Shown: in pieces, positions 20,855-43,245 of the stretch | Layout of the letters: every line of letters starts with the position of its first letter | Numbering within the stretch: the stretch's first letter is position 1 | From: a virus | Strand: one strand, 5' to 3' | IMG/VR virus record: IMGVR_UViG_3300045988_146045 | Location: 1-45,884 of that record | Length of the DNA: 45,884 nt | Notes under the pieces: generated by a model | What the model was told of the DNA's origin: nothing | Seen by the model: only the letters and a program-made list of their open reading frames with translations | The model's database searches: none | Position numbers and translations under genes: made by a program

Positions 20855-20904
20855 TATTATCATCCTTTCATAATATAATTTAACCACATTATTAACGAAA
20901 AGTA

Positions 20905-20990: not shown

Positions 20991-20992
20991 AG

Positions 20993-21127
20993 GTGAGAAA
21001 TATAACTAAAAGAACAACTACTGTAAAATCAGATGAAGATTTAGTTTTAAAAGCTAAGATATTTTGCTTAAAAACGAAGACTAATTTTAGCAGATACGTA
21101 GAGGATTTAATTAAAAAAAAGATTTAG
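20993..21127 (+). CDS. Possible ribbon-helix-helix (CopG/Arc-like) small protein with no canonical start codon; approximate coordinates
   Basis: Translation RNITKRTTTVKSDEDLVLKAKIF...NFSRYVEDLIKKKI has a beta-strand and two helices in an RHH pattern; the only in-frame start-like codon is a GTG inside the GGAGGTGA RBS. Confidence 0.3.
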   Translation: MRNITKRTTTVKSDEDLVLKAKIFCLKTKTNFSRYVEDLIKKKI

Positions 21128-21147
21128 AAAAGAAAGGAAAATAGAAA

Positions 21148-21885: not shown

Positions 21886-21983
21886 TTTGAATGTCACCAT
21901 CAGGCACTTATATTATAATACATAAAAGGTAAATTGTCTACCTTTTAACAAGTGCCTCTAAGATTAAATGGAGGAACAAGAAA

Positions 21984-22166
21984 ATGGAATCAAAATTAAT
22001 TGATATTATTAAAAAAGCTAAGAAAGTATTTAAAACAGATAGTAGTCTTATGGTGGATGAAATACTAATTTTAAATAGGAAATCGAAAAGTAATACAGAG
22101 TTGGTGTCTAGTGCTTATGCACTAGGATACATACGAGGTGTTGAAAGTAATAAAAAAAAGGTATAA
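21984..22166 (+). CDS. Hypothetical small protein (60 aa)
   Basis: RBS TGGAGGAACAAG. Confidence 0.4.
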   Translation: MESKLIDIIKKAKKVFKTDSSLMVDEILILNRKSKSNTELVSSAYALGYIRGVESNKKKV

Positions 22167-22331
22167 AATTAAAGTATCCTAAAGATATCGAAAAAACTCC
22201 CAAACAAAAAAACAGACTGCAAGGGAGAGTGGTTTGGTTTGCATAGCGAATTAATGCAGTCACATATTAGAGCCATGAGCCGATGTATATTTTATACGTC
22301 GGTTTTTTATATATAAACTGGAGGAAATGTT

Positions 22332-22619
22332 ATGAAACTAAATATATTGGGAACAAAGTATGATTTAAAATATATCGATAACCCTGATGAAGACATGCAA
22401 AATAACGATGCGGATGGGTATACAGATAGCATAAATAAAAAAATAGTTATTCTTAGTAAAACACCTAACGATATAGAAAGCATACTTAGGCATGAAATTA
22501 TTCATGCATATTTAATCGAAAGTGGTATTGGATATGGCTATGCATTTCATAATGAGGACATGGTAGAATGGCTAGCGATGCAATTTCCTAAAATAGAAAA
22601 AACGATTAATAATATATAA
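22332..22619 (+). CDS. Small HExxH-motif protein (putative mini-zincin metallopeptidase, 95 aa)
   Basis: Motif LRHEIIHAYLIESG (HExxH plus downstream E/G); RBS TGGAGGAAATG. Confidence 0.35.
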   Translation: MKLNILGTKYDLKYIDNPDEDMQNNDADGYTDSINKKIVILSKTPNDIESILRHEIIHAYLIESGIGYGYAFHNEDMVEWLAMQFPKIEKTINNI

Positions 22620-22662
22620 TAAAATTAAGAGCCCTGAGCCGTAATGGAAAGGGGTTTTTATA

Positions 22663-24303
22663 TTGTATGTAGATAAAATATCAAATGCATTAAAGAAAAA
22701 AGGAAGTTCTTTTGAAATAGTAAACAGCTGTTTCGAGTTATGCAGATTAGAGACAAGTGAACTAAGCATAAGAAAAGGAAGTGAACTGGTTAAGAGAGCA
22801 GTAATTAAAAATGTTAAACAAGGTGAAGAATGGTATGATCTGTATCGAAAAGTTTTATTGTTTCGTGCACCTTACTGTTTTGAAGATTATTTAATTTATC
22901 TAGAAATTGATAGACCACCAGAGGAACGATTCTATCAACCGCGGAGGAAAGTATTAAAAGTTGTAGTTGAAGAACTTCAGGCGTTAGCTGATGATGAGCT
23001 GGATGAATTATTTGTAAGTATGCCACCACGTGTTGGGAAAACAACTATATTAATGTTGTTTATTACGTGGATCATGGGGCGAGATGGTGAGGCAAGCAAT
23101 TTATATAGTGCGTTCTCAGCTATAATTACAAGTGCTATGTATACTGGTGTGTTGGAGGTAGTGACAGACAGCTATACATATAACTGGAAAAAAGTATTTA
23201 ATAATTCAGGTATTGCTAATACTGATGCTAAAAAGGAAACCATAGATATTGATAGAAAGAAACGTTATCCAACATTAACGTGTCGTTCGTTGTATGGAAC
23301 ATTGAACGGAGCATGTGACTGTTCTGGGTATTTAATTAGTGATGACTTAATCGGTGGTATTGAAGAAGCGTTAAACAAAGACCGTTTAATGAATGCATGG
23401 TCAAAGGTAACGAACAATTTAATACCTCGTACAAAACAGTCTGCAAAGAAAATATGGATTGGTACACGCTGGAGTTTAATTGATCCGGCTGGTTTAAGGA
23501 TGGACTTCTTGCAGAATAATGAAGAAGGTAAAAAGGTAAGGTTTAAAATAATTAATCTACCAGCGCTTAATGAAAACGACGAATCTAATTTTGATTATGA
23601 TTATAATGTTGGATTTAATACAGACTACTACAAACAGTTAAGAGCACAGTTTGAAAGAAATAATGATATGGCATCATGGCAAGCTCAATACATGGGAGAG
23701 CCTATTGAGCGTGATGGAGCACTATTTACACCTGATACAATGAATTTCTATAACGGGGTAATAGCTGATGAACCAGTAAGAAATTATATGACGGTCGATG
23801 TTGCGTGGGGTGGTGGTGATTATGTTTCAGCACCAGTATGCGTAGAAACTGAAAACGGAGATTTCATACCTGATGTAGTATTTAATAATGGTGATAAAAC
23901 TATAACAAGACCATTAATTGTAGACTGTATTATCAAAAATAATGTTAAGTATGTTCAGTTTGAAGCTAATAATGGCGGAAGCGAATATGCCGAATGGATA
24001 GAAAGAGAATTAAAACAGAGAGACTATAAATGTACGATAACAAGTAAATCAGCACCAACTAATAAGCGAAAAGAAGCGCGTATATTTGAACGTGCACCTG
24101 AAATTAGAGAGTTTTACTATTTAGATAACGGGCGCAGACATAAAGAATATCAATTGTTTATGAATAATCTATATGCTTTTAAAATTGTAGGAAAAAATAA
24201 AAATGATGATGCACCAGACAGTATGGCGATGCTTTCAGAAGTAAGAGGAAGAGGAAAATACACTTCTGTAACAACCTTCAGTAGAAAAGATTTAGGAATA
24301 TAA
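22663..24303 (+). CDS. terL: Terminase large subunit (TTG start predicted)
   Basis: Walker A PPRVGKTT, an ATPase core, and a C-terminal nuclease region with conserved acidic residues; 546 aa. Confidence 0.85.
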   Translation: MYVDKISNALKKKGSSFEIVNSCFELCRLETSELSIRKGSELVKRAVIKNVKQGEEWYDLYRKVLLFRAPYCFEDYLIYLEIDRPPEERFYQPRRKVLKVVVEELQALADDELDELFVSMPPRVGKTTILMLFITWIMGRDGEASNLYSAFSAIITSAMYTGVLEVVTDSYTYNWKKVFNNSGIANTDAKKETIDIDRKKRYPTLTCRSLYGTLNGACDCSGYLISDDLIGGIEEALNKDRLMNAWSKVTNNLIPRTKQSAKKIWIGTRWSLIDPAGLRMDFLQNNEEGKKVRFKIINLPALNENDESNFDYDYNVGFNTDYYKQLRAQFERNNDMASWQAQYMGEPIERDGALFTPDTMNFYNGVIADEPVRNYMTVDVAWGGGDYVSAPVCVETENGDFIPDVVFNNGDKTITRPLIVDCIIKNNVKYVQFEANNGGSEYAEWIERELKQRDYKCTITSKSAPTNKRKEARIFERAPEIREFYYLDNGRRHKEYQLFMNNLYAFKIVGKNKNDDAPDSMAMLSEVRGRGKYTSVTTFSRKDLGI

Positions 24304-24367
24304 TTTTTTTTCTTGACAAGGTTAAAATCTGTACGTAGCCTTAAAGTAGGAAGTGGGGTAATTAAAA

Positions 24368-24517
24368 TTGAAAAAAGAAATATATTGCCCCGTTTGTGCA
24401 AAAAGGGGTAAAAAGAAACTTCTAGGAGCTGTAGAAGAAGGTTCAAAAGGAACAGTGTATCTATGGTGTAAGGAAGATAAAAAACCAATAAAGATTGAAT
24501 TAAGTAAAATTAAATAA
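24368..24517 (+). CDS. Small zinc-ribbon protein (49 aa, TTG start); approximate coordinates
   Basis: CPVC...WC pattern; RBS GGAAGTGGGG; not in the ORF track. Confidence 0.3.
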   Translation: MKKEIYCPVCAKRGKKKLLGAVEEGSKGTVYLWCKEDKKPIKIELSKIK

Positions 24518-24521
24518 AAAT

Positions 24522-24575
24522 AGAGCCATGAGCCGATGTATTACGTAAAAAACGTAATAGTCGGCTCTTTTTATT
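24522..24575 (+). terminator. Strong rho-independent terminator (gagccgatgtattacg-aaaaaa-cgtaatagtcggctc plus T-run)
   Basis: 15-16 bp stem followed by ctttttattt. Confidence 0.65.
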
Positions 24576-24594
24576 TACAGTTAGGGGGTGTGTT

Positions 24595-26070
24595 ATGAGT
24601 AGTACGACAGGTGAATTAGCAATAGAACAGTTTAAAGGCAGAAAAATGATTACTACGGATGTTGTGGAAATCACCAAAGACAACATACATGATGTGTTGG
24701 GTAAGGCAATGTCTATTCATATAAGAAACCGTAGTCAAATAAGACGGCTGTTTGAGTATGAAAAGGGAAATCAAAATATTCTTTATCGTCAAAAGGATGT
24801 AAGACCTGAAATAAATAATAAAATTGTTGAAAATCATGCGCACGAGATCGTCAACTTTAAAGTCGGATATGTTTTCGGACAACCGATAAGCTATGTTCAG
24901 CGTGCTAATAAAGATTTATCTAATACCGAATCAAGTGGAGACAATGTAGTAGATGCATTAAATGAAATGATGTTCGAGGAAGGTAAATATTACAAAGATC
25001 AGGAGCTGGCAAGAACGTTTTCAATTTGTGGTGTTGGTTATCGAATGGTTACACCATACAAAGTAAAAAAAGGAGTTAGTGATTTTCGGATTACTAATCT
25101 GGATCCGCGTTTTACATTCGTTGTTTATAGTGCTGATGTTTTTCATGAACCAATGATGGGTGTTACATACTGGATTGATGAAGATAATATGATTCACTGC
25201 ACAATTTACACTGAAAATTTTGTTTATAAAACAACGGGGAAATATGGAAATGTGTTCACCCCTGATGGAAAACTTGAAGAATCGATAAATGGAATAGGAG
25301 CAATTCCAATTATCGAATACAAAAACGATGATTCAAGGATGGGATGTTTTGAAAGAGTTCTTGGACTGCTTGAAGCAATAAACTTATGTACTTCTGATCG
25401 TCTTAACGGATTAGCACAGTTTGTACAGTCATTGCTATGGTTTAACGATATCGGTATTGATAATGAACAGTTTAAGTTACTTAGAGAAGAAGGTGGTATT
25501 TCTACGAAATCACTAAGCGATGGAAAAACACCAATATTGCAGTATATAAAAACAGAGCTGAATCAAACAGAGGTCCAGACACTAGCTGACTATTTATATA
25601 TGCAAGTGTTACAGATTACCGGTACACCGGCTAGAGGGCAGTCAAGTGGCGGTAACACTGGTGTTGCTTTAATGTTAGGCGAATCAGGGTGGCAGTTAGC
25701 TGAAGAAAACGCGCAAAGTGCAGAAACGTTATTTGGCAACAGTGAACGTCAAATGATGCTAGTAATCAAAAATATTATTGAACGCTCTAAAGATAATGAT
25801 ATCAGCGAGTTATGTATCGCTGATATAGATATTAAGTTTAATCGGAATAAGATTAGTAATTTATTAAACAAGACGCAAGCACTTATGAATTTACAGACTG
25901 CTGGAATAAATATGCGCCACGCAATTAAAACTGTTGATTTATTTCCTGATCCGCAGCAGGTATACAAAGACAGTGAAAAACAGTTGGAGAAGAACGTTAA
26001 GGAGCAAACGACGGAGAAGGTCGAAAACGAGCAAAGGTTAGAGAAAAACGTTAAAGAGCAAGGAGATTAA
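24595..26070 (+). CDS. Portal protein (SPP1 gp6-like)
   Basis: 491 aa directly after terL; sequence typical of the Gp6 portal family. Confidence 0.75.
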   Translation: MSSTTGELAIEQFKGRKMITTDVVEITKDNIHDVLGKAMSIHIRNRSQIRRLFEYEKGNQNILYRQKDVRPEINNKIVENHAHEIVNFKVGYVFGQPISYVQRANKDLSNTESSGDNVVDALNEMMFEEGKYYKDQELARTFSICGVGYRMVTPYKVKKGVSDFRITNLDPRFTFVVYSADVFHEPMMGVTYWIDEDNMIHCTIYTENFVYKTTGKYGNVFTPDGKLEESINGIGAIPIIEYKNDDSRMGCFERVLGLLEAINLCTSDRLNGLAQFVQSLLWFNDIGIDNEQFKLLREEGGISTKSLSDGKTPILQYIKTELNQTEVQTLADYLYMQVLQITGTPARGQSSGGNTGVALMLGESGWQLAEENAQSAETLFGNSERQMMLVIKNIIERSKDNDISELCIADIDIKFNRNKISNLLNKTQALMNLQTAGINMRHAIKTVDLFPDPQQVYKDSEKQLEKNVKEQTTEKVENEQRLEKNVKEQGD

Positions 26071-26073
26071 ATT

Positions 26074-26655
26074 ATGGATTTAAAAAAGCATTTAGGCAAA
26101 AAATACAAAGATAACATGACTTTTGAAGAAATTCAGGAAGCATTAGCGGATTTACCTGAACCTGATTCAGTTGTAGATAAAGAAGAATACGACAAAATGA
26201 AAAAGCTGAAGGATGAAGCAAGCAAAGAAGCGAGTTCTTGGAAGAAGAAATATAATTCTACGCTAAGTGAAAAAGAGCAGTTAGAGATTGCTCAAAATGA
26301 GGCGAATGAAGAATTACAGAATAACTATGATGCATTGTTAAGAAAAACAACTATTGCCGAAAGGAAAGCTGAATTAGTTGAATTAGGTTACGATACTAAG
26401 CTGGCTCAGGAAACAGCTGAAGCAATGGTTGATGGAGATTTCACAAAAGTTATTGCTAATCAAAGTAAATTTGCCGAATCAGTTAAAAAGAACACAACTG
26501 ATGAATTATTAAAGAACACAAAAACACCTGAAGGTGGAGGCAGTGAGGAAGGTATGACAAAAGAGCAGTTTAATAAGTTATCGATTTCAGAAAAACAAAA
26601 CCTATTCAACACTGATCCTGACACCTTCAAACAATTTGCAAATGGAGGAGAATAA
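26074..26655 (+). CDS. Scaffolding protein (acidic, coiled-coil rich)
   Basis: Position between portal and capsid genes; charged helical composition. Confidence 0.55.
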   Translation: MDLKKHLGKKYKDNMTFEEIQEALADLPEPDSVVDKEEYDKMKKLKDEASKEASSWKKKYNSTLSEKEQLEIAQNEANEELQNNYDALLRKTTIAERKAELVELGYDTKLAQETAEAMVDGDFTKVIANQSKFAESVKKNTTDELLKNTKTPEGGGSEEGMTKEQFNKLSISEKQNLFNTDPDTFKQFANGGE

Positions 26656-26658
26656 AAT

Positions 26659-27477
26659 ATGTCAGAATTAAATCACACACATCAAAAATACGATAATTTC
26701 GTATTAGCGGTTGAATTTGAAAATCAGTATCAATCGAAATTAGACTTAATGAGATTTTGTACTGTTGATGATTCTTTGGTAGGTACACCTGGAATGAAGA
26801 AGAAAATCAATCGCTATTCAGCTACAGACGGTACTGAAGTGTTAACAATTGGGAAAGGTAATACCAAAAATATTGAAACAAAATTAACACAAGAAGAATA
26901 TGAAATTGAGTTACTACAAAATCGTTTTCCATACTATGATGAAGATGCTATGCAAGATCCTAATGTAATTACTACTGGGTTAAATCACATGGCTGTAGAT
27001 ATGTTTAATACAGCGAATAAAAAAGCGATGGCAGAATTCCAAAAAGCAACAGCAAAGGTTGAGGTTGAAAAATTTGATTTTGATGCATTCGTTGATGGTT
27101 CCGCATTGTTCCCTGAAAACGAACAAGAAGATATGGCGATTTTTGGATTAGTACATCCAAAAGATAAAGCAGAAATCAGAAAAAATCTTAAAGACGATTT
27201 AAAATACGTCGAAGATTATGCACGTGCTGGATATATTGGACATGTTGCTGGAGTTCCTTTATATAACTCTAATCATGCAACACAAGGTACAGTTATTTTA
27301 GCAACAAAAGAAGCTGTTAAATATTTCGTGAAAAAAGGAACTGAAATCGAACAAGAACGTTCTAGCGCTAACGAGCGTTTAACAACTGTATATTCTCGTA
27401 AGTACGGTATCTTTGCATTCGTAGACGATACTAAAGCAGTTAAATTAGAGAAAAAATCTACATCAGTATCAGGATAA
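26659..27477 (+). CDS. Major capsid protein
   Basis: Position after the scaffold gene; 272 aa; strong RBS GGAGGAGAATAAAAT. Confidence 0.6.
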   Translation: MSELNHTHQKYDNFVLAVEFENQYQSKLDLMRFCTVDDSLVGTPGMKKKINRYSATDGTEVLTIGKGNTKNIETKLTQEEYEIELLQNRFPYYDEDAMQDPNVITTGLNHMAVDMFNTANKKAMAEFQKATAKVEVEKFDFDAFVDGSALFPENEQEDMAIFGLVHPKDKAEIRKNLKDDLKYVEDYARAGYIGHVAGVPLYNSNHATQGTVILATKEAVKYFVKKGTEIEQERSSANERLTTVYSRKYGIFAFVDDTKAVKLEKKSTSVSG

Positions 27478-27490
27478 GAGGTGATTAAGA

Positions 27491-27811
27491 ATGACACAAA
27501 AAGAAATGCTTAAGAAGCTGGTGCCTGAGATTACTGATGATGATATCGAAGTGCTTTTGGAACTAAGCAAGGGTGTTATTCTTAATGCACGTTTCCCTAA
27601 TGGTGAGATTCCATTAAACAAGTTAGGAGAGACATATGTAGAAAATAGATACTTGCATTTACAAGTACAAATGTGTATTGAAATGTTCAACCGTAGGGGC
27701 AGTGAGGGTGAGACACAGCGTACTGAAAATGGAATTTCACGTACATATGATACTGCTGATATTTCGAAATCTTTAGTTGGGAAGATACTTCCTAAGTGTG
27801 AAATATTATGA
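27491..27811 (+). CDS. Head-tail connector / DNA-packaging adaptor (gp6/gp15-like)
   Basis: Size and position after the capsid gene. Confidence 0.45.
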   Translation: MTQKEMLKKLVPEITDDDIEVLLELSKGVILNARFPNGEIPLNKLGETYVENRYLHLQVQMCIEMFNRRGSEGETQRTENGISRTYDTADISKSLVGKILPKCEIL

Positions 27812-28170
27812 GAGATTTAGCAATCAATCAACAGATTATTTTCTACCAAAACTACGGTGTGGGTGAAACGGTTGATAAATACGGTAATCCGGTTAAAGGA
27901 TATGGAGATATTGAATCAATGCGTTTGTGTGTAAGTTCCAACAAAGGAGAACCTAACGAGGATATCTTTGGTAACGATCTAAAGTACGACAAGACAATGT
28001 CTACCCACAATTTGTCATGTACTATAGATGAATTTACACGGTTATGGATTGGAATTCCCAAAACCCAACCATACAATTACAAAGTTAAAGCAGTTGCTCC
28101 AAGCTACAGTTGTATAAAATACGCTATCGAAAAAGTCAACAAAAATGAAGATAAAAGTAAAACTGAGTGA
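27808..28170 (+). CDS. Head-tail joining / head closure protein
   Basis: Gene order. Confidence 0.4.
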   Translation: MRDLAINQQIIFYQNYGVGETVDKYGNPVKGYGDIESMRLCVSSNKGEPNEDIFGNDLKYDKTMSTHNLSCTIDEFTRLWIGIPKTQPYNYKVKAVAPSYSCIKYAIEKVNKNEDKSKTE

Positions 28171-28648
28171 TAAGGGTATTGATAAAGCATTGAAGCAGTT
28201 GGAGCAGTACAAACAAGATTTAAATAAAAAAGCTAACCATTTGGTACAACGATTAGCTGATGAAGGATATACAACAATTATTAATAAGATATTCGAATTT
28301 GATGCCATAGAAACTGGCGATATGTTAAGTTCTGTATCAAAAAAATCAAATAATTGTTATGCGATGTTATCTGTAGGGGATTGTGCTATGTTTGTAGAAT
28401 TTGGTACAGGTCCAAAAGGTGAGGAAAATCCATACATAGGTTATAGCATGGGGTGGAAATATAACACTGGAGATAACATTAAAGAATATGCAATAAATGG
28501 GGTAACAGTAACTGGGTGGTTTTATCCTGATGGAAGCGGTGGATATCGTTTTACAAGCGGTATGCCCTCACGTCCATTTATGTATGAAACTGCTATGGAA
28601 CTCCGTTATAACAAAATGGAAAAGATTATTAGGGAGGTGTTTAGATAA
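28145..28648 (+). CDS. HK97 gp10-like tail-attachment protein
   Basis: Motif FVEFGTGPKG typical of the HK97_gp10 family. Confidence 0.5.
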   Translation: MKIKVKLSDKGIDKALKQLEQYKQDLNKKANHLVQRLADEGYTTIINKIFEFDAIETGDMLSSVSKKSNNCYAMLSVGDCAMFVEFGTGPKGEENPYIGYSMGWKYNTGDNIKEYAINGVTVTGWFYPDGSGGYRFTSGMPSRPFMYETAMELRYNKMEKIIREVFR

Positions 28649-29037
28649 TGATAGATCACGAAAGTTATGTATTTGAAGTAGTCGCTTCAAAATTACGTGA
28701 AGAATATGGCATTGATAATATTTACATAACTGGTGAGGAAATATCTAATACACCTCCTAAGTTTCCAGCTGTCTGTATAATGCAGAGTGACAATATTATT
28801 AATACTGATTATTCAACTTTTAATGAAAATGAAAATGTCGCAATCGAAACTTACAAAATTGAAGTTGTAAGTATTGATAGTAAAGATGAATGCATGAAAA
28901 TAGTAGCTGTTATCAACGATGTATTGGTAAAGCATGGATATTTAAGAACATTCAATCAGCCGATAAAAAGTGCAGATAGTGATATATACAGAAGAATTGC
29001 AAGATTTAAAAAAGTAAATTCAATAGGAGGAAATTAA
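28648..29037 (+). CDS. Tail completion / tail terminator protein
   Basis: Gene order immediately before the major tail protein. Confidence 0.4.
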   Translation: MIDHESYVFEVVASKLREEYGIDNIYITGEEISNTPPKFPAVCIMQSDNIINTDYSTFNENENVAIETYKIEVVSIDSKDECMKIVAVINDVLVKHGYLRTFNQPIKSADSDIYRRIARFKKVNSIGGN

Positions 29038-29039
29038 AT

Positions 29040-29516
29040 ATGGGAGTTGCGTTAAATACTGCTGGTGTAACAGTTGGATATGCTGTAGAAGCTAGCGCTG
29101 GAGCTAGACCAACAACAAATTACATTGAAATTCCTGATATTAAGGAAGTACCTGAAATGAATCCTGAACCTGAAACATTGGAAACTACAGTTTTAAAGGA
29201 AACAGAGTACAAAACTTATATCGAAGGCTTAAAGGATTTAGGTGGTGCATTATCATTTTTGGCTAACTACACCGAAGAATTAAGTACTGCATGGGATACA
29301 CTGGTAAAAGCATATAAAACAGCCAGTGAATCAAACAAAGCAGTATGGTTTGAAATCAAACATCCAAGACTTGAAAAATCTGTTTACTTCACTGGACAAC
29401 CAAGTGCTATGGGGTTACCAGCAATGGCAGTTAACAGTGTATTGGAAACAAATTTATATATTACACCAACAAATGCGCCAGCATGGGAAACAAAATCAAC
29501 AACTGCGGAAGGTTAA
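29040..29516 (+). CDS. Major tail protein
   Basis: Position before the G/GT chaperone pair and the tape measure gene; 158 aa. Confidence 0.6.
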   Translation: MGVALNTAGVTVGYAVEASAGARPTTNYIEIPDIKEVPEMNPEPETLETTVLKETEYKTYIEGLKDLGGALSFLANYTEELSTAWDTLVKAYKTASESNKAVWFEIKHPRLEKSVYFTGQPSAMGLPAMAVNSVLETNLYITPTNAPAWETKSTTAEG

Positions 29517-29534
29517 TCCTTTCGTAGTTTAAAT

Positions 29535-29876
29535 ATGGAGGAAAATAATATGGCTAAAGTTATTAATTTTACTTATAAAGATAAGGATTACACATTGGAG
29601 TACACAAGAAAAACATTAGAAAAAATGGAAGCAGATGGAATTAATTTAACTGACTTGGATAAAAAACCAGTTACAATCTTACCTAAATTATTTGAATATG
29701 CTTTCTTTGCAAATCATAAACGCACATCAAAAGAATTGATTGAAGAAATGTTTGAATTGTTTACTGATAAAAATGAAATGTACAACAAATTAAGTGAGAT
29801 GGCAATGGAAACATTAAATACTTTATTTGAGGATAGTACAGAAAAAAACGCGATCAAGTGGACGGCGACATTTTAG
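29535..29876 (+). CDS. Tail assembly chaperone G
   Basis: Upstream of the tape measure gene; ends just after a slippery heptamer. Confidence 0.6.
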   Translation: MEENNMAKVINFTYKDKDYTLEYTRKTLEKMEADGINLTDLDKKPVTILPKLFEYAFFANHKRTSKELIEEMFELFTDKNEMYNKLSEMAMETLNTLFEDSTEKNAIKWTATF

Positions 29877-30241
29877 AAGAACCGTCCTCAAAAACATTTA
29901 CAGAAACGTTTTACGAAGTTTTTCCATTCTATTTAAGTATTGGAATGACATATGAGCAGTTTTGGGAAAACGACCCTTCACTTGCTAAATACTATCGAGA
30001 AGCTGATAAACTGCGCAATGAACGAAATAACACAGATGCATGGATTCAAGGAATGTACATATACGATGCTGTAAGTACAGTTGTATATAATGTGTGGTGC
30101 AGAGATAAAGGAAAATCACCAGCAAAATATACAGAGAAACCGTATCAGTTCAATGCAGTAAAAGCTAAAGAAGATTTAGTAGAAGAAGAATCGGCGAGAG
30201 CTGAAGTATGGATGAAAAATTTTGTAAATCGATTTAAATAA
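29535..30241 (+). CDS. Tail assembly chaperone G-T fusion, made by a programmed -1 ribosomal frameshift at A_AAA_AAC (29843-29849)
   Basis: The zero-frame codons gaa-aaa-aac form an X_XXY_YYZ heptamer. The -1 frame runs without a stop into the track ORF 29858..30241. Confidence 0.6.
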
Positions 30242-30289
30242 TGAGCCGACCGAGAGCCTTAAATTTTTTAAGGAAGGAGGTTATCTAAA

Positions 30290-34822: not shown

Positions 34823-34835
34823 AGGAGGGATTGAA

Positions 34836-35201
34836 ATGGACGATGTTATTAAAATTAATGGAGTAGGTTTCAACCCTTCTTCATTAGAATTTCAAGTTTA
34901 TGATTTAGACGGTGAAGAAGGCTCAGGACGTAATCAAAACGGAGAAATGTTTAGAGATAGAAAAGCAGTTAAGCGAAAGGTTGTTTGTACATTTAACGGT
35001 CTTACAGATGCTATGGCTAGCAAATTACTTAAAGCAGTTGAACCAGTATTCTTTTCTTTAGAATATCCTGATCCAGTTGAAAACAAGCGTAAAACAATAA
35101 CGGCTTATGTTGGTGACAGAACTATGCCGATATTTAAATATGATGCGGTTAAAAAATGCTGGATATGGGAAACGATTAATTTAAATTTTATTGAAAGGTA
35201 G
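34836..35201 (+). CDS. Small tail protein after the tape measure gene (distal-tail position, 121 aa)
   Basis: Position only; too short for a canonical distal tail protein (Dit). Confidence 0.35.
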   Translation: MDDVIKINGVGFNPSSLEFQVYDLDGEEGSGRNQNGEMFRDRKAVKRKVVCTFNGLTDAMASKLLKAVEPVFFSLEYPDPVENKRKTITAYVGDRTMPIFKYDAVKKCWIWETINLNFIER

Positions 35202-35208
35202 AGATAGC

Positions 35209-37605
35209 ATGATTAATACAAACGAAGAATTTAATTCATCGGTCATAGCACAAGACCGTGTTATCAATGCCAAAGTTATTTTTAATGGCACAACAGAATT
35301 AATCAATGAAGTCATATCTGTTGTTTTAGACGAAATTTCTTGTAGCGAATCAACTTTAAAAATTGGTGAAATAAACACTAATAAAGCAACTGTAAAATTC
35401 AAAATGCCTGATAACAAGATTCCATTAAAAAATAGTACAGTAAAAATTTATAGTGGTGTAAATGGTGTTTATGTATGTAAGGGTACATATTACACAGCTG
35501 AGATTGATAAATCAGACAACAGCGACTTTATAACAGTTGTAGCTTATGACAGCACATATCGTTTAAATAAAACATATATACCTGATATTGAATACCCTAA
35601 TAGTTTATCGAATGTAATAAATGATATTTGTAGCCAGTGTAATATCTTGCACGATATAAAAAATATACCGGACATTATAATTGATGGATATATTGATAAT
35701 ATGACGTGTAAACAATTCCTAGGCTATATGATGGGCTTAATGGGGTGTAATGGAACAATAAATCCAGACGATAAATTAATCGCATATTGGTACAAGGATT
35801 GTGGTATTGAGATAACTTATGATTTGCAGTTTATGAACGGTTTCAACAGAACTACTGACGAGGACATAGTAATCAACTCGTTAACAAGCGGTGATAGTGA
35901 AAATGTACTGGTAGCTGGAAATGGATTCGGTATAACTTTCGAAAATCCGTATATGAAACAAGAAATATTAGACAGTATATTTGAGCGGATTAAAGGTTTT
36001 ACATACACACCATGTACTGTAGAGTGGCGAGGTAACCCAGCTTTAGAAATAACTGATATTGTTAAAGTTGAAGATAAAAATGGTGTTTTACATAATGTAC
36101 TGCTAAGTGAACATACAATAGTGCTTACGGGCATGAAATCGAACATAACTTGTAAAGGTGAAACTGAAATAGATACAGTTATGAATCAGTCACCTACAGA
36201 CATTAAACTAAATAAGCTGTATGCCACATTAACAAATGCTTTTAAAAATACTACTGATAAAATTTTAGGCAATCAGGGCGGTTATTACAGAATTGATATG
36301 AACGACGAAGGTTTTCCTTCAGGATGGACTATCATGAATACTCCTGAATTAAGGGATGATACACATTTGTGGAGATTTACAGCCGGTGGTCTAGGCTATT
36401 CTGAAGATGGTGGGAAGACATTTAAAAATTTAGCCTTTGACCTTGATGGTAATTTCAATGCAAATGTTATTACAACTGGTATATTGCAAGGTGAAATGTT
36501 TGAACTTGATTTACAGACGGGTGTTATTAAGATTGGGAAACGTGATTCAGAGGGTGAAATAAGCAATCCTAGCTTTTATCTAAACGAAAAAGGCGAGTTA
36601 ACAATAAAAGCCTTTGAAGAAATAAAAGAGGAGCTACAAGCTAAAAAATACCTCGTGAGTATTGAAAATACCGGTACTACATTAAATGAACCTAGTGATT
36701 TAATAACTTTAGACGCTAAGGTATATGATGGCAATAATGATGAAACAAACAACATAAGCAGTATTAGTTTTAACTGGTACAGAGTATCGAGTGATAGCGA
36801 AAGCGATAAAACTTGGAATAACAGTCACAAAGGGAAACGTTCGATAATATTAACACCTGACGATGTAAATGTTAACGGCAGTTTCTATTGTGAAATAACA
36901 TTACCGATTGGTACTAGAAAAACACTGTCTATAAGCATAACTGATAATAATGACATTGCTAATCTAGAAGGCAGTTTCTTGGATGTCACTGGTGTCAATA
37001 CAGTTCAATCATATGATGAAGGTTATGTACCAAACTGGGAAGAAACCCCAGCAGTTATTACCCCAGCGGTTTTAGATGGATTATTAAATGTAGATTTAAA
37101 TAACTGCACACTGGTTTGGAAACGTAATAATAATGGAACGGAGACAGATTTAATAGAGGGTGAGAGTGTCTTAAACGGTATCCTAACAGTAAATAAAAAT
37201 GTTATGTCTAAAGGACGTCCATATATAACATATATTTGCTATGTAACTTATAAAAATGCAACAAAAAAACTTAGTGTAACGTTTATGCTTAATATCGATG
37301 GCAAGGATGCATTAGTTCTTAAAATAGACAGTTCAAATGGCTATATATTTAAAAATACTGGTGTGTCTACTACGATGACAGTTCAAATATTTGTGGCTGG
37401 TGAAATAATAGATACATCTCAAAAAATGTATAATTATTTTGGCGATAAAGCGAAGATACTTTGGGAAGTAAAACATATTAAGGAAACAGACTTTACAGCG
37501 TTAGATCCAGCTGATTCTAGATTAACGGACAATGGATTTATATTAACGCTAACATCAAATGATATAAATGAAAAAGCAACATTTAGATGTTTTTTAGATT
37601 TTTAG
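35209..37605 (+). CDS. Tail-associated structural protein (Tal-like / prophage tail endopeptidase-type N-domain) with a C-terminal domain shared with the next gene
   Basis: About 800 aa after the tape measure gene; the C-terminal ~80 aa (SSNGYIFKNTGVSTTMTVQIF...ATFRCFL) is homologous to the C-terminus of ORF 37620..38633. Confidence 0.5.
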   Translation: MINTNEEFNSSVIAQDRVINAKVIFNGTTELINEVISVVLDEISCSESTLKIGEINTNKATVKFKMPDNKIPLKNSTVKIYSGVNGVYVCKGTYYTAEIDKSDNSDFITVVAYDSTYRLNKTYIPDIEYPNSLSNVINDICSQCNILHDIKNIPDIIIDGYIDNMTCKQFLGYMMGLMGCNGTINPDDKLIAYWYKDCGIEITYDLQFMNGFNRTTDEDIVINSLTSGDSENVLVAGNGFGITFENPYMKQEILDSIFERIKGFTYTPCTVEWRGNPALEITDIVKVEDKNGVLHNVLLSEHTIVLTGMKSNITCKGETEIDTVMNQSPTDIKLNKLYATLTNAFKNTTDKILGNQGGYYRIDMNDEGFPSGWTIMNTPELRDDTHLWRFTAGGLGYSEDGGKTFKNLAFDLDGNFNANVITTGILQGEMFELDLQTGVIKIGKRDSEGEISNPSFYLNEKGELTIKAFEEIKEELQAKKYLVSIENTGTTLNEPSDLITLDAKVYDGNNDETNNISSISFNWYRVSSDSESDKTWNNSHKGKRSIILTPDDVNVNGSFYCEITLPIGTRKTLSISITDNNDIANLEGSFLDVTGVNTVQSYDEGYVPNWEETPAVITPAVLDGLLNVDLNNCTLVWKRNNNGTETDLIEGESVLNGILTVNKNVMSKGRPYITYICYVTYKNATKKLSVTFMLNIDGKDALVLKIDSSNGYIFKNTGVSTTMTVQIFVAGEIIDTSQKMYNYFGDKAKILWEVKHIKETDFTALDPADSRLTDNGFILTLTSNDINEKATFRCFLDF

Positions 37606-37619
37606 GAGGAAATAAGTAA

Positions 37620-38633
37620 ATGGCAATAAAAGCAACAGCAGAGCAAGATGTGCTTGATATAACAGACGGCTATTCAATACATTTAAGTAATGATAATTAT
37701 ACGTTTCAGGGAACTACAACATCAGTAGAAGGAACTCAGTCATTAACTTGCAAAATAACTGCTATAAGAGGTTCGGATAAAATGGTGTGTTCAGTTGGGG
37801 ATATTACAGCTCCAACGGGATTAAGTATAGTTTCAGATGGGAAAACACCAGAACCAACATTAACGATAACTGCAACAAGCGCATTAACTAAGAGCGGAAG
37901 TGTTATTATTCCGGTAAAAACAGAAGATGTTACAATTGAAAAAGTATTCAGTTGGTCGATAGCATTTAAAGGAAATAATGGTACAAGTGTTACAGTATCG
38001 AATACAAGCATAACATATCAAGTTGGTACTTCGGGAACGACTGCGCCAAACGGTTCATGGACAACCGCAATTCCTTCTGTTCCTTCAGGACAGTATTTAT
38101 GGACAAAAACAGTAGTAACCTATAGTGATGGTAAATCTACTACAGCATACAGTGTGTCAAGAAATCCTACAAACGGTACAAATGGTACGAGTGTTACAGT
38201 TAAATCAACGGTTACAGAATATCAGGCAAGTAATTCCGGAACTACTGTACCAACTGGTTCATGGTCTAGTACACCAGTTGCTGGGAACCCCGGTCAATAC
38301 GTATGGACTAGAACAACCGTAACCTATTCAGACAATAAAACAGCAGTATCGTATTCTATCTCAAGAAATGGCACTAATGGTGCAGATTCGATCACTATGG
38401 CAATCAAATCTTCAAATGGAGTTATCTTTAAAAATACCGCTATCGCAACAACTTTAACAGCTCGCGTATTTAAGGGTGGGGTAGAAGTTACTGGCAGTGC
38501 ATTAACTGCACTAGGAACGATTAAGTGGTACAAAGATGGTGGTTCAACAGCTGTAGCAACTGGTTCTAGTTTAACGATTAACGCTGGTGACGTTAATAAT
38601 AAAGCAACTTATACAGCGCAGTTAGAGGGATAG
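37620..38633 (+). CDS. Tail fibre / receptor-binding protein with three ~47-aa internal tandem repeats (GTNGTSVTV...GQYLWT.T.VTYSD..)
   Basis: Internal repeats are visible in the translation; shares its C-terminal domain with the upstream Tal-like protein. Confidence 0.5.
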   Translation: MAIKATAEQDVLDITDGYSIHLSNDNYTFQGTTTSVEGTQSLTCKITAIRGSDKMVCSVGDITAPTGLSIVSDGKTPEPTLTITATSALTKSGSVIIPVKTEDVTIEKVFSWSIAFKGNNGTSVTVSNTSITYQVGTSGTTAPNGSWTTAIPSVPSGQYLWTKTVVTYSDGKSTTAYSVSRNPTNGTNGTSVTVKSTVTEYQASNSGTTVPTGSWSSTPVAGNPGQYVWTRTTVTYSDNKTAVSYSISRNGTNGADSITMAIKSSNGVIFKNTAIATTLTARVFKGGVEVTGSALTALGTIKWYKDGGSTAVATGSSLTINAGDVNNKATYTAQLEG

Positions 38634-38637
38634 TTTT

Positions 38638-39279
38638 ATGGCTGTTAAAGCATATGCGCTTATAACATTAACAGACTGTTATGACGGTACAGACGGTACG
38701 GTTCATAGTGCTACTGCACCTAGTGATAAAACTAAGTTATGGTTTGATACAACTGATAATCTTCTAAAATACTGGAACGGTACTACATGGGAAGTGACTA
38801 ATGATTTTGCTGGTGATATCAATGATATGAAGCAGAATATTACCACTGAATATACTTCTGCGATCAACCAGCTTAAAGAATCGCTGACTACACTGGTTGA
38901 AAAACTACAGACTACCACTACTGACAATTCAACTTTGATAGAGCAGTTATCATCACAGATTGTTCAAAATTCTAGTTCTATATCACTGGTTACAAACAGT
39001 ATTAAAAGTATTACCGACAATATAAGTGGTCTGGCTACGAAAGAAGAAATTTCACAGTGGGCACGTTTTGAAAATGGAGTATTGGAGTTGGGTGCAAGCA
39101 ACAGTCCCTTTGCTGTTAAATTATCTAATACGGAATTAGGGTTCTATCAAAATGGAAGCAGAATAGCATATCTGTCAAACCAACAGCTTAACATTGAATA
39201 TGCCATTGTAATGACAAAATTGAATATCGGAACATTCAGCTGGAATTATGATGCTACTGATGGTCTGACATTAACTTAG
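38638..39279 (+). CDS. Tail fibre protein (N-terminal KLWFDTTDNLLKYWNGTTW motif plus coiled coil)
   Basis: Motif resembles tail-fibre N-terminal domains of Firmicutes prophages. Confidence 0.45.
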   Translation: MAVKAYALITLTDCYDGTDGTVHSATAPSDKTKLWFDTTDNLLKYWNGTTWEVTNDFAGDINDMKQNITTEYTSAINQLKESLTTLVEKLQTTTTDNSTLIEQLSSQIVQNSSSISLVTNSIKSITDNISGLATKEEISQWARFENGVLELGASNSPFAVKLSNTELGFYQNGSRIAYLSNQQLNIEYAIVMTKLNIGTFSWNYDATDGLTLT

Positions 39280-39290
39280 GAGGTGTGTGA

Positions 39291-41066
39291 ATGGCAACTT
39301 TTGGAACAAGTAATAAATATATAAACTACAGTGTTAACAGTCAGGAATTATCGTATGACATAAATTCAAACACCTCTGTTGTACGAGTTTGGATAGACGT
39401 ATGGCGGACAAACACTGGTTATACTACATATGGAACAGGAACAGTGTATGCTCGCATAAACGGCGGAGTATACAGTGCTGGTATAAGTACTGGACAGAAA
39501 ATAACATCAACACCGATTCGCTTAGGTACATGGGATGTTACTGTCGGTCATAATGCTGACGGTTCAAAAGCTATAAGCGTTACTGGTTGGATAAGTCACA
39601 GCCAGTTCAGTTCTTCGGAACAGGGCTATACCCATACGTTAACTACAATCCCAAGGCAGGCTAACATTACAGAAAGTAGCAATTTCACAGATGTTCAAAA
39701 TCCAACTATTAAATTCAGTAATCCAGGTGGCTTTAATATGAGCGTCTGGTTAGAGCCTAACCCAAACGGACCACATCTTGCAGTTAGGGATAATATTCCC
39801 AACACGGGGAGTTATACATGGAAATTAACTGATGAAGAACGAAACCAGTTAAGAGAAGCGTGTAAAGGGAAAACTTGTACTATTCGTATAGGGTTATATT
39901 CTAACAATAAGCAGTGGGCAAGCTATCACGATAGAACATATACTATAACCAACGCTAATCCCAGCTTTACAAGTATTACTGCAACACCGGTAAATCCATT
40001 TGGTTCGTTGTATTTGCAAGGTAAATCAAGTATTAAATTAACAATAAATGGTGCTAAGGGGATATATGGAAGTACTATAACCACTTACAGTATAAAAGGT
40101 GGAGATTACAGTTATAGTGGTGAATCGAACACCTATACTACCGATGTTTTAAGTAAATCAGGTGATATAACATTCACCGCAACAATTACAGACAGCAGAG
40201 GATTTACAGCAAGTAAAACGGTTAAAGTCACGGTTACTGCGTATACACTGCCGACATTAACTTTTGAAACATACAGATGCGACAGTTCGGGAACTAAAGA
40301 TATAATCAAGGGTACTTATATTTATGTTAAGCCTACATTTACTTATTGTGTTATAACTGGGAATGCAATAAAAACTAAAAGTATAAAAATCAACAATACA
40401 GGTAAATCAACTGCGTTTAACAGTGGACAAGGATATGTATTTAGTGGTTATGCGTTAAATACTACCCATGAGGTAGAAGTTTCCATTACTGATAATGTTG
40501 GAAATACAGTAACCGTAATTCACGATATAGATATTGGTAAAGTTATACTTAATATTCCCCCTCACAAAAACGGTGTCGGCTGGGGACGTTATTGCAATAA
40601 AGAAGGAGAATTTCAAATTGAGTATGACTTGAATGTATTTGGAAAAATATTAAAAAATAATGAAGAAGTTCCATTGTTTAAGAAAAACAGTAATTATATA
40701 GTACCTCCTAGTCCTATTGAAAAAAATAATATTTATTTTAAATACTCTGAAAATGAACAATGGACTGGTGAATATAACTACGATGGTAAGAAAATTTATA
40801 TTAAAACAGCATCGTTTATAACAAGTTCATCTAATGTAGGTGCTTGGGCTTCTACTGGAATAATCTTAGCAAATATGTATAGGGTACTAGATATTAGAGG
40901 GTATTCTGATGATGGCGCTCAGTTTAATACTTATCCAAGATACGAAAGTAGTTCATATTTTCTAAATTTATGTTCTGGCGTACAAAAAGATATTTTATAT
41001 ATGTGCGCTGGTTATCCTAGTAAAAAAATAACTCTAAATATTCTTTATACTAAAACAACAGATTAG
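39291..41066 (+). CDS. Phage minor structural / putative receptor-binding protein (591 aa)
   Basis: Position between the fibres and the lysis cassette; beta-rich sequence. Confidence 0.45.
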   Translation: MATFGTSNKYINYSVNSQELSYDINSNTSVVRVWIDVWRTNTGYTTYGTGTVYARINGGVYSAGISTGQKITSTPIRLGTWDVTVGHNADGSKAISVTGWISHSQFSSSEQGYTHTLTTIPRQANITESSNFTDVQNPTIKFSNPGGFNMSVWLEPNPNGPHLAVRDNIPNTGSYTWKLTDEERNQLREACKGKTCTIRIGLYSNNKQWASYHDRTYTITNANPSFTSITATPVNPFGSLYLQGKSSIKLTINGAKGIYGSTITTYSIKGGDYSYSGESNTYTTDVLSKSGDITFTATITDSRGFTASKTVKVTVTAYTLPTLTFETYRCDSSGTKDIIKGTYIYVKPTFTYCVITGNAIKTKSIKINNTGKSTAFNSGQGYVFSGYALNTTHEVEVSITDNVGNTVTVIHDIDIGKVILNIPPHKNGVGWGRYCNKEGEFQIEYDLNVFGKILKNNEEVPLFKKNSNYIVPPSPIEKNNIYFKYSENEQWTGEYNYDGKKIYIKTASFITSSSNVGAWASTGIILANMYRVLDIRGYSDDGAQFNTYPRYESSSYFLNLCSGVQKDILYMCAGYPSKKITLNILYTKTTD

Positions 41067-41164
41067 GAGCTGAGATTATGGTAATTAGAAAAAGAGTAAT
41101 AGATAGAAGAACATATTTTAAGGGCTATTGGAGATAGATATTGATAAGAAAGTTGAGGAAAATT

Positions 41165-41407
41165 ATGATTAAAACACATGAATTAGACGTTACAGCAAGT
41201 AAATTTGCTGAACTTTTAGAATCGAACTACAAGATTCTAAAACAAAATGATTACGAGCAGAACGATTATATTTTATTTAGAGAAATCGAAACTGTCGAAG
41301 AAGAAGTCAATTATACTTCGAAATCACAGCTAACGCAGATTAAACAGATTATTAATGATGAAGGTATCAAGGAAGGCTATGTATTAGCTGTACTTAATAA
41401 AATTTAA
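41165..41407 (+). CDS. Hypothetical protein (from MIKTHELDV)
   Basis: RBS GAGGAAA before ATG 41165. Confidence 0.4.
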   Translation: MIKTHELDVTASKFAELLESNYKILKQNDYEQNDYILFREIETVEEEVNYTSKSQLTQIKQIINDEGIKEGYVLAVLNKI

Positions 41408-41420
41408 GGAGGAAACTGTT

Positions 41421-41678
41421 ATGAAGATTAATTGGAAAGTAAGAATTGCTAACAAACAATTTTGGCTGAGTGTTATTCCAGCGGTATTGTTAGTTATTCA
41501 GGTAGTGGGGGCGGTGTTTGGCTATACACTAGATTTTGGCGATTTAGGTAATAAGTTATTAGCTGTAGTAAATGCCGTATTTGCATTACTTGTTATTTTG
41601 GGAGTTGTTGTTGATCCTACAACTCAAGGGGTTAGTGATTCCGAACGTGCTCAACAATATGACAAACCAGTTAAGTAG
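41421..41678 (+). CDS. Holin (Phage_holin_1 family)
   Basis: N-terminus MKINWKVRIANKQFW, two TM helices, and the conserved DPTTQGVSDSERAQQY tail. Confidence 0.75.
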   Translation: MKINWKVRIANKQFWLSVIPAVLLVIQVVGAVFGYTLDFGDLGNKLLAVVNAVFALLVILGVVVDPTTQGVSDSERAQQYDKPVK

Positions 41679-41686
41679 GTGATTGT

Positions 41687-41911
41687 ATGAGCGATGTAGT
41701 AGTTACCGCTATTATAAGTGGTTTGTGCGTTGCTATCCCATCAGTAATAGCAACGATGAGCAGTAATAACAAATCAAATGCGTTGATGAATTATAGAATT
41801 GATGAATTGACTAAGGAGGTCGAAAAACATAATTCTGTAGTCGAACGTATGGCTGTTGTAGAAAACAGCCTAAAATCAGCACATCATCGTATTGATGAAT
41901 TAAAAAAGTAA
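41687..41911 (+). CDS. Holin-associated small membrane protein (N-terminal TM plus C-terminal coiled coil; XhlA-like role possible)
   Basis: TM helix followed by a coiled coil; sits between the holin and the endolysin. Confidence 0.4.
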   Translation: MSDVVVTAIISGLCVAIPSVIATMSSNNKSNALMNYRIDELTKEVEKHNSVVERMAVVENSLKSAHHRIDELKK

Positions 41912-41951
41912 TGAGCCTTGAGCCTACTTTTAAATAAGGAGGTTTTTATTT

Positions 41952-43030: not shown

Positions 43031-43216
43031 ATGGTAAAAGTAATAGCGGATGCATTAAATGTTAGAAGTGAAAATCGAGTTAATGAAAGAAATGTAATTG
43101 GTATTGTCTATAAAGGTGATGAATTAGAAGTAATTAAACAAGGACCGAAGTGGACAGAGATAAAATACAAAGATAAAAAGGCATATGTAATGAATGAATT
43201 TATTGAAAAAATCTAG
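43031..43216 (+). CDS. Stand-alone SH3b (SH3_3) domain protein (61 aa)
   Basis: Sequence VIADALNVRSENRVNERNVIGIVYKGDELEV...WTEIKY is typical of bacterial SH3_3. Confidence 0.55.
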   Translation: MVKVIADALNVRSENRVNERNVIGIVYKGDELEVIKQGPKWTEIKYKDKKAYVMNEFIEKI

Positions 43217-43245
43217 AGCATTAGATCTAGATTTTTTTAGTAGCT
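43211..43245. terminator. Bidirectional terminator (tctaga-n8-tctaga plus T7) between convergent genes
   Basis: Hairpin with a T-run on the plus strand and an A-run on the other side. Confidence 0.5.

Follow-up and report, generated by a model that had tools for sequence, protein, structure and literature searches.

A tandem motif, two copies of the pentamer GAGCC a few nucleotides apart, precedes five late genes of a temperate siphovirus-like phage genome (IMG/VR record IMGVR_UViG_3300045988_146045; its 45,884 nucleotides are the window of this analysis). At each of the five sites one copy of the pentamer forms the 5' base or arm of a hairpin, which either is an intrinsic terminator or involves the ribosome-binding site of the downstream gene. 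Between the genes of the large terminase subunit (terL) and the portal protein, immediately upstream of the third site, the window encodes a zinc-ribbon protein of 49 amino acids (aa), which is probably a remote member of the superfamily of the RNA-binding protein Com of phage Mu. The junction of the two GAGCC copies is identical to the RNA motif recognized by Com. From these sequence comparisons we think it rather probable that the Com-like protein binds the sites on late RNA and relieves terminators and hairpins sequestering ribosome-binding sites across the late operon. Besides terL, the genome encodes a Rha-type regulator, an SPP1-type portal, a tape measure protein and an NlpC/P60-SH3 endolysin.

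A tandem motif in the late-gene spacers

We scored the pattern GAGCC-N(1-8)-GAGCC in the 45.9-kb window and in 100 dinucleotide-preserving shuffles of it. The window contains five matches, starting at positions 22270, 22629, 24523, 30243 and 41913, while the shuffles contain 0.04 matches on average and one at most. All five are located on the plus strand in intergenic spacers of the late region, and five of the seven plus-strand intergenic gaps longer than 40 nt in this region hold the motif. The single words are not enriched across the window: there are 9 copies of TGAGCC where 7.3 are expected, and 19 of GAGCC where 21.2 are. The unusual part is therefore the tandem arrangement, together with the strand and the intergenic placement, rather than the frequency of the words.

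Site 1 (22270-22281, GAGCCATGAGCC) reads GAGCC-AT-GAGCC, which contains CC-AU-GAG in the RNA, and lies upstream of a gene encoding an HExxH protein. Site 2 (22629-22640, GAGCCCTGAGCC, GAGCC-CT-GAGCC) precedes terL. Site 3 (24523-24534) repeats the sequence of site 1, GAGCCATGAGCC with GAGCC-AT-GAGCC, upstream of the portal gene and 5 nt past the stop codon of the com-like gene. Site 4 (30243-30258, GAGCCGACCGAGAGCC, GAGCC-GACCGA-GAGCC) precedes the tape-measure gene and has the longest spacer, and site 5 (41913-41924, GAGCCTTGAGCC, GAGCC-TT-GAGCC) precedes the endolysin gene. All five are on the plus strand. A previous reading of the window, made from the sequence only, had described a plus-strand intergenic motif at these five late genes, and the scan bears this out with small corrections of coordinates. 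The portal copy exists but occupies 24523-24534, not 24522-24533. The 21-bp identity between sites 1 and 3 (TAGAGCCATGAGCCGATGTAT) is real, and its second copy was correctly placed at 24521-24541; the first copy lies at 22268-22288 and not at 22266-22286. At the tape-measure and endolysin sites the motif had been said to overlap the upstream stop codon. The two are in contact there, with the TAA directly abutting TGAGCC.

Hairpins at the five sites

RNA folding places one GAGCC copy in the 5' base or arm of a hairpin at all five sites. The hairpins of sites 1 and 3 are clearly intrinsic terminators. In terminator 1 (22277-22311, plus strand) a 13-bp stem starting from the second GAGCC, with GAGCCGAUGUAUA paired to UAUACGUCGGUUU, is followed by a U-run; its folding energy is -16.8 kcal/mol (z -2.0), and it is the top plus-strand terminator in our consensus scan. 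In terminator 3 (24530-24572, plus strand) the stem GAGCCGAU...UCGGCUC is followed by UUUUU, with an energy of -24.7 kcal/mol (z -3.4). The sequence-only reading had noticed that the second GAGCC enters a terminator stem at both 21-bp copies, and in the folds it is indeed the 5' base of the terminator at both.

The other three hairpins involve translation signals. Hairpin 2 (22626-22660, plus strand) is formed by UAAGAGCCCU and GGGGUUUUUA, which in the RNA pairs AAGAGCCCU with GGGGUUUUU. Its energy is -16.6 kcal/mol (z -3.4), a value reached by 1 of 200 shuffles. The 3' arm holds the Shine-Dalgarno (SD) sequence of terL (GGAAAGGGG, 22646-22654) and a U-run, and terL starts with TTG at 22663. 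In hairpin 5 (41920-41945, plus strand; -9.1 kcal/mol, z -0.65) GAGCCU.CUUU pairs with AAGG.AGGUUU, so that the 3' arm consists of the endolysin SD AAGGAGG (41936-41942) and a U-run. The weak hairpin 4 (30257-30273, plus strand; -11.4 kcal/mol, z -0.5) pairs CCUUAAA with UUUAAGG and extends into the 5' part of the SD, AAGGAAGGAGG. A search of Rfam returned nothing at the gathering score in the window or in five relatives, and around sites 1-3 it gave noise only, with E-values up to 10.

The geometry of the sites bears on whether the motif acts as DNA or as RNA. The leading idea of the sequence-only reading was a DNA-level late-promoter element or a binding site for an activator. This idea accounts for the recurrence of the motif upstream of late genes, and small zinc-finger late activators are found in other phages, for example Ogr of P2. 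However, at sites 2, 4 and 5 the motif ends only 22-31 nt from the start codon with an SD in between, and thus a leader and a -10 element would not fit. Sites 1 and 3 run straight into a terminator, and the consensus scan flagged no promoter-like hexamers at any of the five sites. A -35-type late-promoter element is ruled out by these distances and by the immediate terminators. In the relatives described below, moreover, the sequence downstream of the motif is unconserved except through pairing, and across more than 200 loci the motif always has the orientation of transcription. Any role as a DNA-level promoter or activator site is thus highly improbable in our view. The RNA-level options of the same reading, an antitermination site or a translational signal, fit the position in the 5' arm of hairpins, the occurrence on the sense strand only and the published RNA-binding motif discussed below.

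Conservation and covariation in related phages

Portal-based searches of viral contigs and genomes recovered 76 loci with a portal identity of 40-99% and a GC content of 32-45%. The hosts among them belong to several orders and include a 'Tenericutes' (Thomasclavelia-like) metagenome-assembled genome, Acutalibacteraceae and Diplocloster hominis. The conservation in related phages by which the sequence-only reading proposed to check the motif is complete in this set: GAGCC-N2-3-GAGCC is present on the sense strand in 76 of the 76 loci and on the antisense strand in none. It is located just upstream of the portal gene and usually in one to four further places, namely before terL, after a MuF-like/scaffold gene and before the tape-measure gene. 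Of the sites in the window, site 2 is kept in loci L001-L010 and L069, and site 4 in L001-L008 and L069. Site 5 is kept only in 10 near-identical relatives, and these are also the only loci in which an endolysin-based search found the motif. As a negative control, the tandem motif is absent from both strands of 67 endolysin-retrieved loci of other phages (∼300 kb). At the DNA level, window positions 21900-26100 have no match among deposited phages (blastn, distant mode).

The sites of the relatives share a common architecture: GAGCC-NN(U)-GAGCC is followed by a variable stem-loop, GGCUC(A) and a U-run. The consensus is W-GAGCC-NNU-GAGCC-R, with a spacer of N2 or N3. Most of the 94 unique hairpins of the relatives, like those of sites 1 and 3, have the second GAGCC as the base of the stem. 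Inside the conserved GAGCC/GGCUC base of these 94 hairpins, seven pairs are paired in 82% of cells, compared with a mean of 48% and a maximum of 53.5% when the 3' partners are shuffled. Each inner stem position is occupied by several pair types, usually at least five. The structure is thus maintained while the sequence of the stem drifts; the GAGCC copies do not drift.

Several hairpins of the relatives enclose start codons. At the tape-measure site of loci L012 and L070-L072, four tandem GAGCC copies and an SD are followed by AUGGCUCU and there is no U-run. The start codon lies inside the 3' arm, the GAGCC copies pairing with AUGGCUC. The tape-measure gene of Ruminococcus phage RG-TP1 likewise has both its SD and its AUG enclosed by a UGAGCC...GGCUCA stem. 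Judged by their pairing, the tape-measure hairpins of L012, L070-L072 and RG-TP1 are predicted to be translation-inhibition structures and not terminators.

These patterns also bear on a purely cis-acting explanation, in which the sites are a recombining family of terminators with a GC-rich base and the zinc-ribbon gene is a mere neighbour. The upstream GAGCC would then either have persisted as a relic or serve a host factor or a separate processive antiterminator as a signal. The 21 identical base pairs at sites 1 and 3 fit this explanation, and the elements do recombine: L002 lacks precisely the HExxH cassette at 22283-22623, and its junction falls within the motif. Yet the upstream copy, the spacing of 2-3 nt and the U before the second copy are all kept at 40% portal identity, and the upstream copy stays while the interiors of the stems diverge completely. 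The sites that enclose start codons and have no U-run are not terminators. A cis-acting family would also leave unexplained the coincidence with the RNA motif selected by Com and the 18-fold enrichment of zinc-ribbon genes at the motif among the matches listed, both of which are described below. We consider this explanation unlikely.

A com-like gene is linked to the motif

The com-like gene (24368-24517, plus strand; MKKEIYCPVCAKRGKKKLLGAVEEGSKGTVYLWCKEDKKPIKIELSKIK) is a 49-aa zinc-ribbon open reading frame (ORF; CPVC...WCKED) between terL and the portal gene, with its stop codon 5 nt before site 3. The sequence-only reading had missed this ORF. Using tblastn with the window protein, we found it in 77 of 81 motif-bearing loci, and it is the sole gene besides the portal gene that is common to all loci compared. 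Phages of the Diplocloster type share it; no homolog of the window terL was found within the fetched flank of these phages. Two other small proteins, encoded at 21984-22166 and 22332-22619 (the HExxH protein), had been proposed as binders by the sequence-only reading. We rejected both candidates, which occur in only 4 and 7 of the 81 motif-bearing loci, respectively.

The link between gene and motif holds from either end. In 147 of 148 Com-like ORFs the tandem motif lies between -45 and +60 nt from the stop codon. Many of these ORFs read into the motif, and for this reason EPLS (GAG CCx xUG AGC) recurs at their C-termini. The link is also seen in more distant contigs that were reached through protein homologs. 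A wider search for Com-like loci in viral contigs recovered mostly the same phage groups again. Starting from the motif, we scanned viral contigs for GAGCC-N2-3-TGAGCC-N12-42-GGCTCWTTT, which matched at least 120 stretches. Among the matches listed, 28 of the 90 unique sites directly follow a small CxxC...CxxC ORF, compared with 1.7% of random windows in the same loci. This is an 18-fold enrichment among the matches listed. For phages with three to five sites and a single such gene each, a share of about this size would result.

The gene linkage is also relevant to a possible role in RNA processing or stability, in which an endoribonuclease would cut at or near GAGCC and leave stable mRNA segments bounded by hairpins. 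The sites are suitably placed for this between functional gene blocks, beside stable hairpins able to protect 3' ends. Nevertheless, no nuclease gene travels with the motif, a tandem of fixed spacing is typical of binding rather than cleavage, and the linkage to the Com family would have no explanation. We regard processing as very unlikely.

In phage RG-TP1 (PQ571303) an unannotated 48-aa Com-like ORF is located between gp33 and the tape-measure gene (L273 11968-12114). GAGCC-TAT-GAGCC comes next, and then the stem around the SD and AUG of the tape-measure gene. Another copy of the motif in this phage, GAGCCGATGAGCC, overlaps the start codon of gp32 (L273 11041-11053). In four loci of the Diplocloster type a tRNA-Thr gene lies directly upstream of the com-like gene (L075 9526-9726, L076 9515-9724, L150 9845-10057 and L153 8255-8328), accompanied in three of the four by tRNA-Lys, Ile or Met. 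Gene callers have fused the tRNA sequence into the com-like ORF, which results in N-terminal extensions with '...GSNP...'.

The motif coincides with the RNA site of Mu Com

The RNA recognized by the zinc finger of Com has been determined by systematic evolution of ligands by exponential enrichment (SELEX), electrophoretic mobility shift assays and SHAPE probing: Com recognizes 5'-CC(N)2-3GAG-3', in which GA is crucial (Nowacka et al. 2019, PMC6483171). Most of the selected RNAs contained two copies of the motif in a bipartite form. In the Mu mom transcript the Com motifs are proximal to the translation-inhibition stem GAAUGCCUGCGAGCAUCCCACGGAG and partly overlap it, and binding of Com is thought to melt this stem and thereby to activate mom (PMC6483171).

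The junction of the tandem copies, GAGCC-N2-3-GAGCC, is exactly CC(N)2-3GAG. CC-N2-GAG is present in all five sites of the window; the aberrant site 4 keeps the CC(N)2GAG core as an inner CC-GA-GAG at 30250-30256. The chance that a random tandem pentamer fits the Com motif is ∼4^-5, about 1 in 1000. This match is independent of homology and of gene linkage, and all three point to the Com-like protein.

Relationship of the 49-aa protein to Com

The window protein has no significant match in Pfam, NCBIfam or PHROG. Its relationship to Com emerges from comparisons of profiles, for which we took the Mu Com sequence from AF083977. Aligned to Mu Com with hhalign, the family alignments gave 93.2% (E 2.9e-7) and 93.0% (E 3.5e-7) over the zinc ribbon, with the two CxxC knuckles, and hence the four ligand positions, in register. 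In a search with PF10122 the window protein and five relatives are unmatched, and Mu Com matches at 2.7e-9. Mu Com matches PHROG 6417, annotated as 'translational regulator', at 2.8e-10, and several motif-adjacent proteins do so at 1.4e-5 to 0.03; one homolog carries the JGI annotation 'phage FluMu protein Com'. The Com-like profile matches at least 402 representatives of 50%-identity clusters (E ≤1e-3), and a Thomasclavelia record encodes a protein 100% identical to the window product. Against the Cys_rich_KTR family PF14205, which has a cut-off of 25.5 bits, the window protein has no match and members of its close family score 10-15 bits; several other motif-adjacent proteins from the pattern scan pass the cut-off with 26-58.5 bits.

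The AlphaFold2 model of the protein is a confident four-stranded mini-fold (predicted local distance difference test score of 91). Foldseek found nothing with E <2.7 for it in the PDB, the protein being too small to discriminate folds. Searching PDB sequences with the family profile gave only spurious matches to a 'Pizza' repeat protein and to generic zinc ribbons. On the profile evidence the com-like product is probably a remote member of the Mu Com superfamily.

A model of late-gene control

We propose that, when the protein is not there, the hairpins would stop transcription or hide ribosome-binding sites. The Com-like protein would bind CC-N2-3-GAG on the nascent late RNA. The bound GAG(CC) would be the base of the stem beside the U-tract, and the hairpin could not form as long as this base is held single-stranded. 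The hairpin of an intrinsic terminator must reach close to the U-tract to terminate, and holding the stem base open should therefore abolish termination. RNA polymerase would then read through the terminators of sites 1 and 3 once the protein is bound. As in Mu, the same binding would free the SD or the start codon at sites 2 and 5 and at the relatives' tape-measure sites. We infer that the product of 24368-24517 is the protein that binds the sites, and that its binding has an activating and not a repressing effect.

A promoter of its own seems to drive the com-like gene. A candidate is located at 24313-24341 on the plus strand (TTGACA-17-TAGCCT). Locus L069 keeps its TTGACA and TA..CT despite a diverged spacer, and L012, L062 and L070-L072 have consensus TTGACA/TTGACT-17-TATAAT/TATAGT at the equivalent place. 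In phages of the Diplocloster type the tRNA genes noted above immediately precede the com-like gene, which likewise suits separate transcription. An own promoter, with the strongest site directly downstream of the gene, suggests that a short com transcript is made first. This transcript would end at terminator 3, and the portal gene and the genes downstream of it would be transcribed once the protein accumulates. A second candidate, a sigma-A type promoter at 22141-22169 on the plus strand (TTGAAA-17-TAAAAT, 10 of 12 consensus matches), lies ∼100 nt upstream of site 1 and would make site 1 a leader terminator. In the promoter scan, the window as a whole has fewer promoter-like sites than its shuffles.

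In five of the relatives a conserved leader follows a consensus sigma-A promoter that lies ∼100 nt before the com-like gene (L012 9712-9803, L062 9735-9830, L070 9725-9817, L071 3790-3883 and L072 4990-5082). The leader contains a 7-bp hairpin with three covarying pairs and a CUCCUUU that pairs with the SD of the com-like gene. It has no match in Rfam and may constitute a separate control on the synthesis of the Com-like protein.

The least certain part of the model is the sign of the effect. The Com-like protein could bind the sites and act negatively or on itself, by stabilizing the hairpins, by limiting readthrough and so setting the ratio of terL to portal, or by autoregulating the 3' end of its mRNA. 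The gene linkage and the match to the Com motif are silent on this sign. The strongest and most conserved site is directly behind the com-like stop codon, and the many homologs that read into the motif to end in EPLS would suit autoregulation as well. Still, the terminators are strong unaided (-17 to -37 kcal/mol), and the portal, capsid and tail genes downstream need high expression, with no promoter seen past the sites. The precedent in Mu is activation by melting of an inhibitory stem (PMC6483171), and binding to GAG in the base of the stem is sterically incompatible with the stem itself. A negative or autoregulatory action seems to us an improbable alternative to relief of the hairpins.

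Several observations weigh against relief by the Com-like protein. The relatives were found via the portal, the Com-like proteins or the motif itself, and the sampling is biased accordingly. Shuffled sequence folds as stably as hairpins 4 and 5 do (z -0.5 and -0.65), and these two are weak evidence alone. The window protein matches neither Zn_ribbon_Com nor Cys_rich_KTR of Pfam, and its homology to Com is a profile-profile result on a very short domain. The cysteine that is the fourth zinc ligand is replaced by aspartate in the window protein (WCKED, compared with WCRxC in all other subfamilies). This aspartate is kept in relatives of 56-88% identity and a 63%-identical homolog has the cysteine; the protein looks to be under selection, with an atypical metal site. 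The Com-like proteins of Firmicutes lack the tail of Com, and the motif in our sites does not form the loop described for Com. Finally, the com-like gene is located downstream of sites 1 and 2, whose relief would need protein made from the candidate internal promoter or by leaky readthrough.

Mosaicism and genome context

The HExxH gene and terminator 1 form a cassette bounded by two motif copies (22283-22623), the one missing from L002. Homology of the window to L004 and L008 starts at 22264, and homology to L009 and L069 starts at 22608. These two breakpoints, together with the L002 junction inside the motif, show that the motif sites coincide with mosaic boundaries.

The packaging module of the window is split in an unusual manner. 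An ORF similar to the gene of the small terminase subunit, terS (16516-17178, PHROG 606), is ∼5.5 kb from terL (interval 16516-22663). The interval between them contains two minus-strand ORFs, a helix-turn-helix gene, a resolvase/invertase-like gene (18946-19515), a minus-strand repressor-like gene and the Rha-type regulator. At the end of the late and lysis block, the convergent junction at 43206-43236 has an A/U-rich hairpin (AAAAAAUCUAG...CUAGAUUUUUUU) without tandem GAGCC.

Significance

Little is understood of how temperate phages of gut Clostridia and Erysipelotrichales control their late genes. Our searches of the literature on phage GAGCC terminators, KTR/PF14205, Com-like proteins and Tn916 orf6 found no description of this system. 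The model is concrete and can be tested cheaply, as it consists of one 49-aa protein, a 12-nt RNA site and five hairpins. In a broader form, to which we give somewhat less than even chances, Com and KTR mini zinc ribbons with tandem GAGCC would be a widespread, undescribed class of local RNA-binding antiterminators and translational activators that gate the entire morphogenesis and lysis programme in phages of gut Firmicutes. Through orf6, elements of the Tn916 family may use this module as well, downstream of tet(M)/tet(O).

If the model is true, Com would extend from a curiosity of Mu mom to a general phage regulator of termination and translation. It would also give a function to the uncharacterised PF14205 family, possibly including Tn916 orf6, and provide synthetic biology in Firmicutes with a protein-RNA switch that is very small and portable. 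In addition, the motif marks the boundaries of modules at which cassettes such as the HExxH gene come and go.

Comparison with known systems

The closest known system is Com and mom of phage Mu, where Com is a 62-aa CCCC zinc finger (PF10122). Both systems have a small zinc-ribbon protein and an RNA site with 5'-CC(N)2-3GAG-3', often in two copies, located 5' of an inhibitory stem and overlapping it (PMC6483171). In both, the gene of the regulator is immediately upstream of the site on one transcript (here the stop codon is at 24517 and the motif at 24523), and some sites of the relatives sequester the SD and the start codon like the translation-inhibition structure of mom. The differences concern the number of sites, several per genome (five in the window) instead of the one in Mu, and the targets, which here are the genes for the HExxH protein, terL, portal, tape measure and endolysin rather than the DNA-modification gene mom. 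Most of the hairpins here are intrinsic terminators with U-tracts, which implies antitermination besides translational control. The protein is shorter, has a Cys3-Asp site and no disordered tail, and falls under the Pfam threshold for Com. The phages here have Firmicutes as hosts, are siphovirus-like and possess an SPP1-type portal.

A second likeness is to the Cys_rich_KTR proteins (PF14205), which include Tn916 orf6 and for which a literature search turned up no published function. Many sites of the pattern scan directly follow PF14205 proteins, and both Tn916 orf6 and ORF60 of phi-m46.1 are followed by two GAGCC copies, the second being the base of a terminator. Unlike these proteins, the window protein and its close family are below the PF14205 cut-off, and the GAGCC copies of Tn916 are 15 nt apart. 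In detail, the 3' ends of orf6 (in Streptococcus phage IPP61, L275 ∼2990-3215) and of ORF60 (L274 2998-3225, downstream of tet(O)), both encoding Cys_rich_KTR proteins, are followed by GAGCC-N15-GAGCC, and the terminators end in GGCUC and a U-run. It is thus possible that readthrough downstream of tet(M)/tet(O) is controlled by this module. In Flavonifractor phage Cormatin (ON453905, L272 12001-12260) a KTR-type protein annotated as 'translational regulator' is encoded just before HNH-terS-terL. Downstream of its gene, GCGCCUGAGCCA occurs twice at a distance of 19 nt, and the second copy is the arm of a terminator; this is the motif with a variant spacing.

Protein-dependent antitermination at an RNA that overlaps the 5' arm of a terminator is known from BglG/LicT and its RAT sites, HutP and ANTAR proteins, and the local antitermination proposed here resembles it. 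The binder proposed here is instead a 49-aa zinc ribbon, and no alternative antiterminator stem is evident. We found no CAT/PRD, HutP or ANTAR domains in the com-like protein or in the products of the genes next to the sites.

Finally, as with Q of phage lambda at PR'-tR', late structural genes lie behind a promoter-proximal terminator and a phage protein would be needed to pass it. The N and Q proteins load once and render the polymerase processively resistant, whereas here a copy of the motif is present at every hairpin. A recognition site at each hairpin argues for a local, non-processive action of the Com-like protein.

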